Shown here: positions 3,639 to 11,927 of the stretch, one piece after another
How the letters are laid out: the number at the start of each line of letters is the position of its first letter
How positions within the stretch are numbered: position 1 is the first letter of the stretch
Assembly (NCBI GenBank): GCA_964391345.1
Contig: CAYMKZ010000002.1
Location: 69-64,068 of the forward strand
Direction of reading: 5' to 3'
Length of the DNA stretch: 64,000 bases
Source of the DNA: an uncultured Alcanivorax sp.
GTDB lineage: Bacteria > Pseudomonadota > Gammaproteobacteria > Pseudomonadales > Alcanivoracaceae
Position numbers and translations under genes: made by a program
Notes under the pieces: model-generated
Seen by the model: only the letters and a program-made list of their open reading frames with translations
Databases searched by the model: none
What the model was told of the DNA's origin: nothing

Positions 3639-3908
3639 GGTGAAGCTCCGTGAGGCGGCGGGCGGGTGTCGAGGCCGCGTATTCTAGCAACCGGGCGGGA
3701 GCCTGGGAAACTCCACAGGGGGTTATTCCGTGCTGGCCGACGGAATATTTGCCGGTGGCGGCATTGTGGTTCGCCAGCCGTGCCCGGATGGGTGATAATG
3801 CGCGCCAGTTTTCCCGCTCGCCACGGTTGCCCGGTCAGTTGACGGGGCCGGTGACGCGGCGCTCTCCCGGAGCTTGATTCGCACCTCGGAAAAAGGTGGT
3901 TTTTCCTT

Positions 3909-5063
3909 ATGTTTCGTCTGTTGATTGCAGCTTTTCTGGCGATCGCCGTGGCCTGCCCGGCACTGGCCGGGGATCTGGGGCAGGTTCAGGTGCCAATGCC
4001 GGACGGCAGCCAGGGTGACAGCACTGCGCGCCAGGCGGCGTTGCAGCAGGGCCTGGAGCAGGTCATCGCGCGCCTGACCGGCAAAAGCGTGGACCAGGTG
4101 AGCCACTTGCCGGGGGCCGCCCAGGCGCTGGCGGAACCGGACAAGTGGTTGTTGCGCTATGGTTATGAAAGCGGCGATCCGCCGGTCTTGCAGGCCCGCT
4201 TCGATGCCGATGCACTGGCCGGCTGGCTGGCGCAACAGGGCGTCGCCGTGTGGAGCGGCCCGCGCCCGCCGGTGCTGGTGTGGCTGGTGGCTGGCGGCAG
4301 CGGTCGCGGGCATATGGTCAGCGCCAATGATCCACTGGCGTCCGTCATCACCCAGGCGGCGGCACAGCAGGGTCTCACCGTGATCCTGCCGGCGTGGGAC
4401 CAGCAGGATCAGAGCGCGCTCACCGTCACCGATGTTCGCGGCCATTTCGACAGTCCGCTGTTGAAAGCCTCGAAGCGGTACGGCACGGACTGGATCGCCA
4501 CCGGCGTCATCTATCGTGGTACCGGGAATGGCGGTGCTCAGGCCACGGTGAACTGGCGCCTGCTGCACAACGGCAATGACATCGCCGACCAGCGTTTTTC
4601 CGCCGCCTCCGGAGAGGCCGCCGCGCAGGCCATGGTCGGTGGCATCGGCGATGCTCTGGTGGCCCGCTTCCGGGTCGTCGGCGGCGGTGGTGTCGACCGT
4701 GCCAATCCGGTGATCGTGCACGGCGTGGATACGTTGCAAAAGTGGGTGGATCTGAAAAAGGATCTGCTGGCGCTGGGCACCATCAGCGCCGTGGATCTGC
4801 GCCAGGCGGATGGCGACACGCTCAGGCTGGCGGTGGATTTCGCCGGCAGCCGTGACGAACTGGCGCAGACGCTCACCCGTCTGCCGACCTTGCAGGTCTG
4901 TGACCAATCCGGCGCCGTACCGCCGCGCGCAACCGCTGCTTCCGGCACCGACACGACGGGTCGCAGCACGGCGGCGCCCGATGCTTCTTCGGCGACGGCC
5001 GACGCGGCCCCGGCCACCGCCGCCAAACCGGCGCCGGCGGCCCTGGTCTTCTGCGAGCGCTGA
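3909..5063 (+). CDS. DUF2066-family exported protein
   Basis: Signal peptide; ARQAALQQGLEQV, RFDADAL, RPPVLVWL, PAWD; divergent from purM and upstream of hda, the usual context for this family. Confidence 0.8.
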   Translation: MFRLLIAAFLAIAVACPALAGDLGQVQVPMPDGSQGDSTARQAALQQGLEQVIARLTGKSVDQVSHLPGAAQALAEPDKWLLRYGYESGDPPVLQARFDADALAGWLAQQGVAVWSGPRPPVLVWLVAGGSGRGHMVSANDPLASVITQAAAQQGLTVILPAWDQQDQSALTVTDVRGHFDSPLLKASKRYGTDWIATGVIYRGTGNGGAQATVNWRLLHNGNDIADQRFSAASGEAAAQAMVGGIGDALVARFRVVGGGGVDRANPVIVHGVDTLQKWVDLKKDLLALGTISAVDLRQADGDTLRLAVDFAGSRDELAQTLTRLPTLQVCDQSGAVPPRATAASGTDTTGRSTAAPDASSATADAAPATAAKPAPAALVFCER

Positions 5064-5066
5064 TCG

Positions 5067-5756
5067 ATGGTTGCCCAACTGCCGCTGGCTCTGGAGTTGC
5101 GTGAAGGTCACGACCTGGACAACTTTCGTGCCGGCCCGAACGGGCTGGCCGTGGACCGGGTACGCGCCGCCGCCGAGGGCGAGGAACGTCAGGTGTTTCT
5201 GTGGGCCGGCCCGGGGCAGGGGCGCAGCCATCTGCTGGAAGGAGCGGTGCGTCATGCGCTGAGCCAGCAGCGTGATGCCTGCCTGCTGCCGGCCGGGGAA
5301 CTGCTGCCGCTGGCGCCGGCGGTGCTGGAATCCATGGAGCAGTTCGCGCTGCTGGCGATCGATGATGTGGACCGTTTCGCCGGCCACGCCGCGTGGGAGG
5401 AAGCGCTGTTTCACCTGTACAATCGGGTGATGGCCGAGGGCGGCACGCTGCTGTTCAGCGCCGCCGCCGCGCCGGGCGCCAACCACTGGCGGCTGGCGGA
5501 TCTGGCCACCCGCCTGGCGGCGGGGCCGGTGTTCCGGCTGCAACCGCTGGACGAGGACGAGCTGGCCGCCTTGCTGGTGGCGCGCGCCGCCGAGCGGGGG
5601 CTGAAAGTCAGTACCGAGGTGGCGCGCTACATGGCCATGCGCAGCGAGCGTCAGCCGGCGGCGCTGCTGGCGCGGCTCGGTGAGCTGGATCGCGTGGCGC
5701 TGGCGCGCCAGCGGGCGTTGACCATCCCCTTCATCAAGGACGTGTTTGGCTGGTAG
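5067..5756 (+). CDS. hda: DnaA regulatory inactivator Hda
   Basis: QLPLAL...DNF, GQGRSHLL, IDDVD, EEALFHLYN, DLATRL, RALTIPFIKDV. Confidence 0.93.
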   Translation: MVAQLPLALELREGHDLDNFRAGPNGLAVDRVRAAAEGEERQVFLWAGPGQGRSHLLEGAVRHALSQQRDACLLPAGELLPLAPAVLESMEQFALLAIDDVDRFAGHAAWEEALFHLYNRVMAEGGTLLFSAAAAPGANHWRLADLATRLAAGPVFRLQPLDEDELAALLVARAAERGLKVSTEVARYMAMRSERQPAALLARLGELDRVALARQRALTIPFIKDVFGW

Positions 5757-8396: not shown

Positions 8397-8573
8397 TTAG
8401 TGAGGTTGTCGGTTCGGACGCGGCCTGCCGTTGCTGTTGTCGGTATCGGCCTCATCTTCGTCGAGATGATGGCGCTGTTTTTTGGCATCCCGCTTGCGGC
8501 GTTCCTTGCCCACCCGTTCGTTTTCCTCTTCCCATTCGCGGGCGTCGTAGTCATCAAATTGGCGACGACTCAT
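8397..8573 (-). CDS. Candidate 58-aa highly charged small protein (not in ORF track)
   Basis: Manual translation MSRRQFDDYDAREWEEENERVGKERRKRDAKKQRHHLDEDEADTDNSNGRPRPNRQPH-stop; GAGAG 8 nt before the ATG; same strand as downstream smrA. Confidence 0.6.
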   Translation of the reverse strand: MSRRQFDDYDAREWEEENERVGKERRKRDAKKQRHHLDEDEADTDNSNGRPRPNRQPH

Positions 8574-8899
8574 GATCGATACTCTCTACTCAATGATGTC
8601 TACTCTAATGATGTTGCGGTCGAGTCAGGTTGATGTTGCGCCATCCGGCGGGTGTTTGACCGCCCCGCTCCGAATGACCCGGAAATGCGGCAAGAGCCCC
8701 GCATTTCTGACCCTATATAGCACTGAAACCGGGCTTCGAGAAGAGTGTAGTGCGAATAGTTGGAGACCGCTGCCGGATGGGGTCCGGCGCGGACGGCGGA
8801 TGCGGGACAGGAGGGTGGATGAAATGGGCTTGGCAGTTTTTGCAGGGTGGGTGCTATTATCAGTCATTAGTCTTGGACAAGACACGGGGAACCAGAAAA

Positions 8900-10912
8900 A
8901 TGAATGGCATTCGCAGACCCATCAATATAACTATAATGGTGCTCGCCGTGGTGCTGGGCCTGGCCATGGCCACACTTTCCTATGCCGCCCCCGCGGATAA
9001 TGCCGCCCCCGCGGAGGATGCCGACTCCGGAATCTACTCGCGCTGGGCGTGGCTCAAGGACACCTACTGGATCGTCCCGCAGAGTGGAATCTATTCGATC
9101 TACCATACCGGTCCCGACCAGTTCGATGTCGCCAGGGGGCAGACGGTCTTCCATATCACCGACTATTACAACGGTTACTGGACCGGTGTGGTGAAGGTCG
9201 ATGTCACCGCCTTGGGCCTTCCCAGCTGCCAGTATGTGATGGGGCAAGTGACGCCCGAAGGTCGGGTGCACATGACCATGTACCACACCGACGACGGCGA
9301 TGTGGTCAACTATCCGATCGGCACCATGGTTTACAAGGACGACCAATGGACCATGGTCAACGAGATGACCTCGCTGACGCAGACCAGTGGCACGCTCAGC
9401 CACTGGGCTTACATGGTGCAGACCAGAGAAGGCGATGCGACCTGGGACGATTTGCCCTTCGCCAATGAATCCGTCGAGGATTTCATGGCCACCTGCCCTG
9501 GTGGTCCGCCGATTCTCCACAAGCCGTCGCCGACACCCTTGCTGTCCCCGATGGCGTTGCTGACGACGGGGGCGAGCCTGGCGAAGGACAATCCTTCGCC
9601 GGTGATTGCTCCCAAGACGCTGGCCGCGCCGAAAGCCGATGTCGTGGACGATTCCGGGGTGTACAAGAAATGGTCCTGGCTCAAGGACACGTACTGGATC
9701 GTGCCACAGACGGGCATCTATTCGATTTACCATTCCGGCACCGACCAGTTTGTCGTCGCCAAGGGGCAGACGGTGTTCCACATCACCGACTACTTCAACG
9801 GCTACTGGACCGGCGTGGTGAAGGTGGCCGTCACCCGGGGGCAGATTCCCAGTTGCCAGTACGTGATGGGGCAGGTGACGCCGGAGGGCCGGGTACACAT
9901 GACCATGTACCACACCGACAGCGGAGAGGTGGTCAATTATCCGATTGGAACCATGGTCTACAAGGACGATCAGTGGACCATGGTCAACGAGATGACCTCG
10001 CTGACACAGAGCGGCGGCACCCTGAGTCACTGGGCCTACATGGTTCAGTCCAAGGAGGGTGACGCGAGCTGGAATGACCTGCCTTTTGTTCATCAGTCCA
10101 TAGCGGATTTCATGGCCACCTGTCCCGCCGGCCCGCCGATTGGCCACAAACCCACCGGGCTGTCATTGTCCTTGACGATGCCGACGACCGTGGCGGGCGA
10201 TGGCGCGCAGGACGAATCTATTGAGGATGTTTCCGCCAAGGCGCTGACCGGCAGTGATACCGGCACGGGTACTTCAGATGATGACGCCGACGCCGGGGTG
10301 TACAAGCAGTGGGCCTGGTTCAAGGACAGCTACTGGATCGTTCCGCAGGCGGGAATCTATTCGATTTATCACACCGGCGCTGACAAATTCGCGGTATCCC
10401 AGGGGCAGACGGTTTTCCACATCACCGATTATTTCAACGGCTACTGGACCGGCGTGGTGAAGGTGGATATCACCGACGCCGACATTCCCAGTTGCCAGTA
10501 CGTGCTGGGCCAGGTGACGCCCGAAGGCAAGGTACACATGACCATGTACCGCACCGACACCGGCGAGGTGGTCAACTATCCGATCGGTACCATGGTACAG
10601 CAATCCGGGCAATGGACCATGGTCAACGAGATGACCTCGGTGACTCAGAATGGCGGCACTCTAAGCCACTGGGCCTACATGGTGCAATCCGACGAGAACG
10701 CTCCGACCTGGAATGATCTTCCCTTCGTGCACGAGACCGTTCCGGCGTTCATGGCCACTTGCCCGGATGGGCCGATGATTCTCCACAAGCCGGGGCTGGA
10801 CGAGGACGACGACAATGGCGGCGGCGGTGCGCTCGGCTGGCCGGCGCTGATCCTGCTGCTTGGTTTCGCCGCCGGTGGCTGGCTGGTCCGGCGGCGCGCT
10901 CAGCGGGCGTAG
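8900..10912 (+). CDS. Secreted triple-repeat protein with C-terminal GlyGly-CTERM anchor; function unknown
   Basis: Signal peptide (MNGIRRP...ATLSYA); three 168-aa repeats; ends DDDDNGGGGALGWPALILLLGFAAGGWLVRRRAQRA. Confidence 0.85.
   Translation: MNGIRRPINITIMVLAVVLGLAMATLSYAAPADNAAPAEDADSGIYSRWAWLKDTYWIVPQSGIYSIYHTGPDQFDVARGQTVFHITDYYNGYWTGVVKVDVTALGLPSCQYVMGQVTPEGRVHMTMYHTDDGDVVNYPIGTMVYKDDQWTMVNEMTSLTQTSGTLSHWAYMVQTREGDATWDDLPFANESVEDFMATCPGGPPILHKPSPTPLLSPMALLTTGASLAKDNPSPVIAPKTLAAPKADVVDDSGVYKKWSWLKDTYWIVPQTGIYSIYHSGTDQFVVAKGQTVFHITDYFNGYWTGVVKVAVTRGQIPSCQYVMGQVTPEGRVHMTMYHTDSGEVVNYPIGTMVYKDDQWTMVNEMTSLTQSGGTLSHWAYMVQSKEGDASWNDLPFVHQSIADFMATCPAGPPIGHKPTGLSLSLTMPTTVAGDGAQDESIEDVSAKALTGSDTGTGTSDDDADAGVYKQWAWFKDSYWIVPQAGIYSIYHTGADKFAVSQGQTVFHITDYFNGYWTGVVKVDITDADIPSCQYVLGQVTPEGKVHMTMYRTDTGEVVNYPIGTMVQQSGQWTMVNEMTSVTQNGGTLSHWAYMVQSDENAPTWNDLPFVHETVPAFMATCPDGPMILHKPGLDEDDDNGGGGALGWPALILLLGFAAGGWLVRRRAQRA
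9023..10792 (+). repeat. Three intragenic 504-bp domain repeats (9023-9526, 9650-10153, 10289-10792)
   Basis: Each runs from D(S/A)G(I/V)Y to HKP with identical length; shared blocks such as GQTVFHITDY, NGYWTGVVKV, GQVTPEG, WTMVNEMTS, LSHWAYMVQ. Confidence 0.95.
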
Positions 10913-11655
10913 GTCGCCTCCAGATAGTCGATGATCCTTTGTGAGTCGAACAGCTCCGTTCCGCTGTTGGGATCGATCAGATAGGGCACGGCCACCCGGC
11001 CGGCCTGCTCCAGCAGCTCCTGCCGGTGGCGCTGGCTGGGGTGATACTCGATGCCCAGTGCCTCGCGGACTGGCGGCAGCACCCAGTCCTGCCACTGGTC
11101 GCGGCCGCACTGGCGCAGTTCGTAAGGGAGCTGCAATTCCGTCAGTCGTTCGCGCACCAGCCGTGCGAACGGGCTGGCCTCGAAGGAATAGAGAATCAGC
11201 GCCTGATCCGCGGCGGCGCTGTTGCGGCTGCGAATGCCCCGCCCGCGGCCGGGCAGGGAGGCAAACAGGGAGGCCGGCGTATGGATGACCTTGAGCCGCC
11301 AGCGGGCCGGCGCCGCCCGTTCGCCGTACTGCCGGTACAGGTAGTCGATGATGTCGGCGGACTCATACAGGTCGCTACCGGTATTGGGGTCCATCAGATA
11401 GGGAAACAGGGCCTTGCCGCCGAGTTTTTCCACCAATGGCCGGTAGCGGTCGCCACCCTTCGGGCAGGGGTAGATCATCGCGTCCAGGTCCAGATCGGTC
11501 AGTGCTTCGCGCACCAGCCGGCAGAACGGGCAGCCTTCCATGTCATAGAGTTCAAGCAGTTCTTCGGGTTGGGACGCAGCGGGGCGTGTGGCAATGCCCC
11601 GGCCTTGCTGGGCGACGGTGGCAGCCAGTGAACGGACGACTTCCAGGGGACGCAT
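10900..11655 (-). CDS. Glutathione S-transferase N-terminal (thioredoxin-like) double-domain protein
   Basis: LELYDMEGCPFCRLVRE...FPYLMDPN...ESADIIDYL, then LILYSFEASPFARLVRE...VPYLIDPN...DSQRIIDYL; start MRPLEV follows GGAGA. Confidence 0.85.
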   Translation of the reverse strand: MRPLEVVRSLAATVAQQGRGIATRPAASQPEELLELYDMEGCPFCRLVREALTDLDLDAMIYPCPKGGDRYRPLVEKLGGKALFPYLMDPNTGSDLYESADIIDYLYRQYGERAAPARWRLKVIHTPASLFASLPGRGRGIRSRNSAAADQALILYSFEASPFARLVRERLTELQLPYELRQCGRDQWQDWVLPPVREALGIEYHPSQRHRQELLEQAGRVAVPYLIDPNSGTELFDSQRIIDYLEATYAR

Positions 11656-11927
11656 GAGAGTATTCTCCTTTTCACGAACGCCTACCATGGCGCGCTCAGC
11701 GGCGTACGGCAATGGCCGTTGAGCCCTGGTGTGGCGGATGGCGGGCGGTCCAGGGTAATGGATGAACGGTGACGGTATCGATGTTGCCAGCCGGTGCGTT
11801 GTCTTTTCTGATCAAAATGGGTGATCGGTTCCGTCATTGTTGCCCCCTGGCTCCTCAGGCACCCTGTGGCGCGTATGTTCCATCGATGCCGGCCTGTCGG
11901 CCGGTGCTCCCGTGAGAGGAAGGTTCA

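Follow-up and report, generated by a model that had tools for sequence, protein, structure and literature searches.

GlyGly-CTERM proteins carry at the extreme C-terminus a Gly-Gly motif, a transmembrane helix and a basic cluster with 0–5 trailing residues, and their helices are rich in Leu (34%), Gly (13%) and Ala (10%) (PMC3237569). VesB of Vibrio cholerae, a protein of this kind, is cleaved by rhombosortase, linked to lipid and brought to the cell surface by type II secretion, and the requirement for type II secretion was shown for this protein (PMC6219818). In Firmicutes, NEAT-domain haem receptors present repeated small binding modules at the surface via sortase and LPXTG (PMC7815599). 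Here, we describe a gene that can be compared with both. It occupies positions 8900–10912 (plus strand) of a 64,000-nucleotide stretch of DNA from an uncultured Alcanivorax sp. (contig CAYMKZ010000002.1 of assembly GCA_964391345.1), which is called the window throughout. Its product has a signal peptide, three repeats of a domain that is predicted to fold as a barrel, and a C-terminal tail of sorting type.

The evidence leads to a reading that we hold with even confidence for and against: the product would be exported and tethered at its C-terminus, with probable processing by rhombosortase and display at the surface, and would present three independent calycin-like binding barrels. It combines known kinds, namely a calycin-like barrel and a C-terminal sorting signal, and is no new kind of system. 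Like the NEAT receptors, it has several linker-joined copies of a small domain, here predicted to be rich in beta-strands, together with a C-terminal sorting signal; the NEAT receptors differ in their immunoglobulin-like sandwich fold, in their use of sortase and LPXTG, and in haem binding, which is a feature of NEAT.

Gene and protein architecture

The features of the gene and of its product (aa, amino acid residues; nt, nucleotides) are as follows, with the basis of each in brackets.

8900..10912, plus strand: whole gene, 670 codons and a TAG stop (open reading frame (ORF) and translation)
8900..8986, plus strand: signal peptide, aa 1–29, MNGIRRPINITIMVLAVVLGLAMATLSYA (read from the sequence)
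8982..9023, plus strand: 18-nt tandem repeat, 2.3 copies, encoding APADNA/APAEDA (Tandem Repeats Finder)
9020..9526, plus strand: predicted barrel domain 1, aa 41–209, with Cys110/Cys199, His168 and Met156/Met172 (repeat alignment, AlphaFold2, Foldseek)
9527..9646, plus strand: linker 1, aa 210–249, 40 aa, rich in Pro/Ala/Thr/Ser (sequence, outside the repeat unit)
9647..10153, plus strand: predicted barrel domain 2, aa 250–418, with Cys319/Cys408, His377 and Met365/Met381 (repeat alignment)
10154..10285, plus strand: linker 2, aa 419–462, 44 aa, acidic, rich in Thr/Gly/Ser (sequence)
10286..10792, plus strand: predicted barrel domain 3, aa 463–631, with Cys532/Cys621, His590 and Met578/Met594 (repeat alignment)
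10793..10909, plus strand: C-terminal tripartite tail of sorting type, 39 aa (sequence, hydropathy, TIGR03501)
10793–10816, plus strand: acidic spacer of the tail, GLDEDDDN (sequence)
10817–10828, plus strand: GGGG motif of the tail (sequence)
10829–10888, plus strand: hydrophobic helix of the tail, ALGWPALILLLGFAAGGWLV (sequence)
10889–10909, plus strand: basic end of the tail, RRRAQRA (sequence)

Only two segments of the protein, aa 8–26 and 645–663, have a hydropathy above 1.6 over 19 residues, and they correspond to the signal peptide and the tail. The signal peptide, which starts at ATG 8900 and is the segment of highest hydropathy in the whole protein, combines an n-region containing RR with a strongly hydrophobic core and finishes in a cleavage-type SYA. 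Between it and domain 1 lies an 11-aa spacer that is overlapped by the 18-nt tandem repeat. An orthologue on a metagenome contig of a close relative (L070) has a shorter spacer at this point (AAPAEDADSG, versus AAPADNAAPAEDADSG in the window), and the length of the N-terminal spacer therefore varies between strains.

The three repeat units, each of 169 aa (507 nt), align without one gap and have start-to-start spacings of 627 and 639 nt. Their pairwise identities are 73–80% in protein and 79–80% in DNA; domain 2 is 80% and domain 3 is 73% identical to domain 1. The first-pass annotation of the stretch had described three exact copies, of which the gap-free register stands and the exact identity does not. 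Each repeat contains 7 Trp and 12 Tyr among its 169 residues and two Cys, in PSCQY and ATCP. The two linkers are of low complexity and bear no relation to each other. The signal peptide, the two Cys of each repeat and a tail made of an acidic run, GGGG, a helix and RRR were all part of that annotation, and each is found where it had been placed.

All three repeats are tiled by contigs of two independent soil-metagenome runs, X1 and X2. The depth is ~15–25x in X1 and ~5–8x in X2, and it is greater only in bins with overlapping contigs. The repeats are far beyond chance and are no assembly artefact. The ratio of nonsynonymous to synonymous substitution rates (dN/dS) between repeats is 0.11–0.25 at a dS of 0.65–1.0 (0.107 for domain 2 against domain 1, and 0.18–0.25 for the comparisons with domain 3), which indicates that the triplication is old and that all three copies have been kept by selection. 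The L070 orthologue is syntenic, follows the same Smr gene and is called from the same start Met; its contig ends within repeat 2, and dN/dS against it is 0.03–0.09. The GC content at third codon positions of the gene (0.78) is similar to that of neighbouring genes.

A 1014-nt contig of another relative (L079, ~90% DNA identity, same flanks) encodes at positions 1–1014 a protein, P0198, that has the same signal peptide and tail and one barrel. The first two thirds of this barrel are like repeat 1 and its last third is like repeat 3. L079 is either a genuine one-domain recombinant allele or an assembly jump between repeats; no joint of its type was found in four low-depth runs.

The repeat as a domain family

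The repeat had been called unrecognised in the first-pass annotation, and searches by sequence and by profile agree. Nothing in Pfam, NCBIfam or the PDB sequences lies above threshold for a single repeat, for the whole protein or for 20 relatives (the last searched singly against Pfam). A profile of the 20 relatives has no match among the PDB sequences, and the repeat itself has none in Pfam or NCBIfam up to E = 10. A word-indexed search with the whole protein returned the self-match only, and an exact look-up of the product returned zero contigs. The family surfaced solely through profile and pattern searches. A literature search that included lipocalin-like copper binders, surface calycins and the 'novel DUF solved with AlphaFold' entries 8t1m and 8t0b revealed no described equivalent. 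Sub-threshold matches to DUF4309 (19.3 bits), HxsA, DLW-39 and JDVT-CTERM were judged spurious: they fall on the linkers or the hydrophobic tail and are not repeated in relatives.

Searched exhaustively with a profile, 1.84 billion representative proteins gave 208 clusters at 50% identity, with E-values up to 1e-3, and a profile search of 5.8 billion proteins gave 382 clusters at 90% identity. Among the 120 of these 382 clusters that were listed, none has a Pfam domain, and the names in the sources are 'hypothetical protein' or 'Lipoprotein'. With one genome scanned per species, the domain was located at 65 loci, which span Actinomycetota, Alphaproteobacteria (Microbaculum, Aestuariivirga, Azospirillum), Planctomycetota, Methylococcales, Rhodocyclaceae and others. 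Nearly all of them encode a single domain in a protein of roughly 190–350 aa, the exceptions being a few fragments or tandem pairs. By the measure of these searches, the repeat is a rare, previously undescribed domain family. The closest genomic relatives, at 57–67% identity, come from Actinomycetota, Alphaproteobacteria, Binatia and Rhodocyclaceae (L001–L015), and none is from Alcanivoracaceae. The triplicated, C-terminally anchored form was seen only in the window and in two related contigs.

In one species, Aestuariivirga litoralis, there is one copy from each of two sequence clades (L015, 60%; L020, 43%). The pattern of homologues suggests horizontal spread and two functional subtypes. At a Rhodocyclaceae locus (L067, 5001–8591), one paralogue is a lipoprotein (217 aa) and its immediate neighbour is a secreted paralogue (196 aa). 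The pair comes after two proteins without a Pfam match, one a lipoprotein (524 aa) and the other secreted (197 aa); this cluster may be a small operon of uncharacterised extracytoplasmic proteins.

The relatives are marked for export by several routes. Those with a classifiable N-terminus comprise 78 with Sec-like leaders, 20 with lipoboxes and 13 with Tat-like twin-arginine leaders. In other relatives the domain is joined to RTX repeats (type I secretion), an autotransporter beta-domain or FG-GAP repeats, or the protein starts with the planctomycete extracellular motif. From these leaders and fusions it appears that the domain is consistently extracytoplasmic and often extracellular, and the extracytoplasmic or surface role proposed for the gene by the first-pass annotation fits the export signals elsewhere in the family.

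Predicted fold and conserved residues

AlphaFold2 modelled repeat 1 from 54 aligned sequences with a predicted local distance difference test score (pLDDT) of 91.5 and a predicted template-modelling score of 0.86, and modelled a 36%-identical relative (P0164) with a pLDDT of 89.2. In both models, an N-terminal helix and then a short strand precede eight long antiparallel strands, after which comes a C-terminal extension containing two short helices. Two Foldseek searches against the PDB gave a best E-value of 9.9e-4, for a designed barrel, and 2.4e-3 for the best natural match. The matches of high probability (near 1) are overwhelmingly closed up-and-down barrels. Among the Foldseek matches are nitrobindin (Arabidopsis, Mycobacterium), lipocalins of the retinol-binding, odorant-binding and siderocalin kinds, and bacterial avidins, as well as designed eight-strand barrels with a target-normalised TM-score of up to 0.70.

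The unit is confidently predicted as a closed antiparallel up-and-down barrel of 8–10 strands, the form that defines the calycin class. Because the structural matches are weak, this is a resemblance of fold class and not family membership, and the repeat, on these models, is best read as a separate family inside the calycin-like fold class. A calycin- or avidin-like barrel had been proposed before; the models bear out the barrel, and a significant match to any calycin family is lacking. The likeness to the calycin barrels, i.e., lipocalins (retinol-binding protein, bacterial Blc, YxeF), avidins (shwanavidin, rhizavidin) and nitrobindin (2a13, 2fr2), extends beyond the predicted ~8–10 strands to a short helix before the barrel and a helical extension after it. 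A conserved Trp in the first short strand of the repeat (G-T-Y-W-Y-V) recalls the G-x-W motif of lipocalins. The repeat differs from the calycin families in having no sequence-profile match to them, in its own invariant motifs ((D/G)QTV, GSVTPEG, QWTMxNQM and HWAYM), and in a presumed inner face that is rich in Met.

Conservation was read from 118 non-redundant domains, filtered at <70% identity. Both Cys are present in 57 of them, and most of the others are without either. Because the two Cys co-occur, they probably form a disulfide pair, which would link the C-terminal extension to the beginning of the fourth long strand; the earlier view of a disulfide-stabilised domain accords with this pairing. 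A disulfide in this arrangement is typical of lipocalins.

Numbered by position in the repeat, Met132 is kept in 100% of the 118 domains, Gly52, Gly56 and Pro146 in 99%, His128, Gln41, Thr42 and Gly101 in 98%, and Trp17 and Trp129 in 97%. They are followed by Gln115 (93%; Glu in the clade of the gene), Asp40 (90%; Gly in the clade) and Met116 (88%). Position 114 is Met in 45% of the family and Asn in the clade of the gene, and positions 103 and 112 are mostly Met. When hydrophobic periodicity is mapped on the predicted strands, one side of the ninth strand carries Trp110, Met/Phe112, Met/Asn114 and Met116 and its other side is polar, and Leu126, His128, Ala130 and Met132 fall on the corresponding side of the last strand. 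On account of this periodicity, the best-conserved side chains probably point into the barrel and would form there a Met-rich patch with one His. The most telling conserved residues are the near-invariant His and the several Met on the putative inner face, which the first-pass annotation had passed over.

What the barrels may bind

Under the reading of three independent binding barrels, each barrel would most likely bind one small ligand, at a putative site lined by His128, Met132, Met116, Met103, Met/Phe112, Trp110 and Gln41/Thr42. The first-pass annotation had proposed a small aromatic or hydrophobic ligand, which is a conjecture. A hydrophobic or amphipathic organic molecule, the default for the fold, comes somewhat short of an even chance. 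A tetrapyrrole such as haem, held via His128 with or without Met132, is quite unlikely, and a soft metal such as Cu(I) is a little more unlikely still.

The His and Met residues could also be given more weight than this. In CusF, a His, a Met-x-Met and a Trp cap, carried by neighbouring strands of a small barrel, make up the Cu(I)/Ag(I) site. His128 would, in roughly half of the repeat family, face Met114-x-Met116 on the next strand with a Trp near, and this near-invariant His, lying on the last strand of the barrel, is reminiscent of the proximal His in nitrobindin. The domain may hold a CusF-type Cu(I)/Ag(I) site or ligate haem as nitrobindin does, and the protein would then act as a trivalent surface scavenger or buffer. 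This alternative overlaps with the reading preferred here, and we rate it as a serious one, though on the unlikely side. It has in its favour the conservation of Met132, His128 and Met116, since Met is seldom so strictly kept in a plain hydrophobic core. Nitrobindin, which is ten-stranded and binds haem via one proximal His (human His155), is the most recurrent natural Foldseek match. The Tat-like leaders of some relatives are typical of cofactor-bearing exported proteins, and in Microbaculum two HupE/UreJ metal permease genes lie ~1.2 kb downstream. However, the models of nitrobindin (THAP4 haem-binding), CusF, CopC and PCuAC are unmatched by sequence, and CusF has another fold. The spacing of His128 and Met132, four residues from each other along the same strand, would be awkward for a lone Cu(I) ion, and Asn replaces Met at position 114 in the very clade to which the gene belongs. 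The neighbourhoods are also without recurrent metal or haem genes.

A bolder form of this idea is that the family is a new class of extracellular barrels that capture a redox-active cofactor (Cu(I), haem or another tetrapyrrole) via the invariant His-Met in many phyla and by varied secretion routes, and that an Alcanivorax-like lineage gained it horizontally, triplicated it and gave it a rhombosortase tail, making a trivalent surface scavenger. We regard it as a doubtful proposition.

The same conserved residues bear on catalysis. Some lipocalin-fold proteins are enzymes, and the set of near-invariant polar residues (Asp40, Gln41, Thr42 and His128) might serve an extracytoplasmic barrel enzyme, in which His128 and Gln41/Thr42, with Asp40 in most of the family, would be catalytic. 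We consider this highly improbable: Asp40 is Gly throughout the clade of the gene, known catalytic motifs and enzyme families are unmatched, and three tandem catalytic domains of the same kind would be unusual.

Binding could take place on the outside of the barrels instead. Tandem domains, flexible linkers and a cell anchor are the usual design of adhesins, relatives are fused to FG-GAP repeats, RTX repeats or an autotransporter, and the N-terminal helix carries the conserved Trp9 and Trp11. The host family consists of hydrocarbon degraders. An adhesin or spacer array, with exposed Trp/Tyr binding a macromolecule or a surface (polysaccharide, a cell, the oil-water interface), would account for these features. 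It is nevertheless improbable, as the best-conserved residues lie on the putative inward strand face and not in variable loops, most relatives are single-domain proteins of 190–250 aa without an anchor, and carbohydrate-binding and adhesin families are unmatched.

The C-terminal tail and localisation

The tail follows the tripartite plan of GlyGly-CTERM: aa 640–670 consist of GGGG, a 20-aa helix and RRR, then four residues (AQRA). As in VesB and the other GlyGly-CTERM substrates, there is a signal peptide and no internal membrane segment, and a Gly-rich motif, a Leu/Gly/Ala-rich helix and an Arg cluster are followed by no more than five trailing residues. The 20 residues of the helix include 6 Leu, 4 Gly, 4 Ala, 1 Ile and 1 Val, a composition that agrees with that of GlyGly-CTERM helices. 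The differences are a helix ~5 residues longer than the TIGR03501 (GlyGly-CTERM) model, of which positions 1–17 of 22 align, a score at or below the curated cut-off, and the cargo, which would be a non-enzymatic barrel array versus a protease or nuclease. P0198, the one-barrel protein of L079, keeps the GGGGALGWP...RRR design with a divergent helix core, and its tail scores 14.5 bits against TIGR03501. The authors of this model state that it misses true members, and they report members in Alcanivorax, which is among the positive genera, and three in A. borkumensis SK2 (PMC3237569). As judged from sequence, GlyGly-CTERM membership of the tail is plausible, not proven. The rhombosortase route is considered probable on the strength of the tail's design and composition, which are those of GlyGly-CTERM, and of the known use of the system by the host family.

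Two other tail models were tried and rejected. PEP-CTERM (TIGR02595) gives 15.2–16.0 bits versus a cut-off of 16, aligns only at model positions 4–23 (helix and basic end), and the PEP motif is absent. MYXO-CTERM (TIGR03901) gives 13.4–14.4 bits where >=20 are needed, and its signature Cys is absent from aa 632–670.

The proposed course of events is as follows. The signal peptide would carry the chain across the inner membrane, and each 169-aa unit is predicted to fold as an up-and-down antiparallel barrel with an N-terminal Trp-rich helix, its C-terminal extension probably pinned to the barrel by a Cys70–Cys159 disulfide (repeat positions). The C-terminal helix with its RRR end would retain the protein in the inner membrane, until, by analogy with VesB, rhombosortase cleavage, lipid linkage and type II secretion probably bring it to the surface. 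There, the three copies on flexible linkers of 40–44 aa could provide greater capacity or avidity.

Several observations weigh against this reading. The first-pass annotation had regarded the tail as an established GlyGly-CTERM signal, which was too strong. TIGR03501, with a curated cut-off of 15.5 bits, gives 7.2 bits for the full protein and 11.7 for the 44-aa tail, both below the cut-off, and the tail passes only as an isolated 35-mer (15.8 bits), for which PEP-CTERM scores equally, at its own cut-off. Neither rhombosortase (TIGR03902) nor a type II secretion gene was found among the Pfam-scanned ORFs of the 64-kb window, nor was a rhomboid-sized polytopic ORF found in it. As to the barrel, the query-normalised Foldseek TM-scores are weak at 0.3–0.45 (0.33–0.45 for the best natural match), the cavity and the inward position of the His and Met residues come from strand periodicity alone, and the putative site may differ in this gene because Asp40 is replaced by Gly and Gln115 by Glu. 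The neighbourhoods give no clue to function: all-against-all clustering of neighbours at the 65 loci found no partner common across lineages, the sole sharing being local synteny in the Aestuariivirga group (nine loci), and nine Pfam-annotated neighbourhoods likewise have no recurrent partner. Expression is not evident from the sole RNA run, in which 6% of the sampled words were present.

The sub-cut-off score of the tail within the full protein and the lack of rhombosortase and type II secretion genes in the window suit a periplasmic protein anchored in the inner membrane, whose tail is never cleaved and whose barrels would, for example, hold a lipid, cofactor or metal near that membrane. A signal peptide with one C-terminal helix and a cytoplasmic RRR is exactly such a topology before processing. 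We consider this arrangement unlikely. It is countered by the Gly4, by a helix with much Leu/Gly/Ala and little Val/Ile and by a basic end that is short, all of which fit the published GlyGly-CTERM description, and by the design of the tail, which is kept in the relative of ~90% DNA identity though the helix core diverges. The host family has the GlyGly-CTERM system, and other lineages send the domain fully out of the cell via RTX or autotransporter fusions.

Locus and origin

The rest of the window contains housekeeping genes, and the thiolase cluster places the host in Alcanivoracaceae. On an Alloalcanivorax-like contig (L075), the order of genes is Smr, a small ORF, a GST-like gene, SodB, DUF2753 and FadA/FadB, and the barrel gene is absent; in the window, the small ORF and the GST-like gene flank the barrel gene. 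The repeats share more identity with one another (73–80%) than with any genomic homologue elsewhere (at most 67%). Given the empty site in L075 and the closest relatives in other phyla, the gene was probably acquired horizontally and then triplicated internally.

The small ORF (8397–8573, minus strand), between the Smr gene and the barrel gene, encodes a highly charged product of 58 aa (MSRRQFDDYDAREWEEENERVGKERRKRDAKKQRHHLDEDEADTDNSNGRPRPNRQPH). Its DNA is near-identical in L070, where it is a called gene, and L075 has a 55-aa gene at the equivalent place. Two terminator-like hairpins lie 3' of it on the minus strand. A search of the 730-nt gap upstream of the barrel gene against Rfam gave nothing credible. 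Within this long gap, positions 8653–8697 form by eye an imperfect hairpin (GAAATGCGG...CCCGCATTTC) and are a local hot spot of variation: run X1 has many substitutions and one- or two-base deletions there, X2 has only the substitution at 8653, and the variants are zero in X3 and X4.

At the other end, the stop region of the gene (10900–10912) overlaps by 13 nt the longest ORF of the convergent GST-like gene (10900–11712, minus strand, two GST_N domains), and the abutting ends of the two genes leave no space for a terminator. Elsewhere in the window, a 606-aa ORF without a Pfam match (3723–5543, minus strand) lies opposite the plus-strand ORFs 3909–5063 and 5067–5756. Because these match DUF2066 and Hda genes by synteny (L070, L071, L075), the minus-strand frame is very likely a shadow ORF of GC-rich DNA.

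Significance

Until a ligand is found, the protein is a good target, for structure, for ligand search and for a domain model, rather than a discovery. A domain model is deserved, as it would group several hundred 'hypothetical proteins'. If the reading of a rhombosortase-processed protein with three binding barrels is true, the rhombosortase pathway, the known substrates of which are mostly hydrolases, would have a non-enzyme cargo, and the three barrels would offer a compact natural scaffold for trivalent display. For the family at large, it would add to the calycin-like barrels an uncatalogued and structurally well-defined family that works outside the cytoplasm and has an unusual conserved His/Met interior, and that travels between phyla (57–67% identity) and uses at least five export or anchoring routes.

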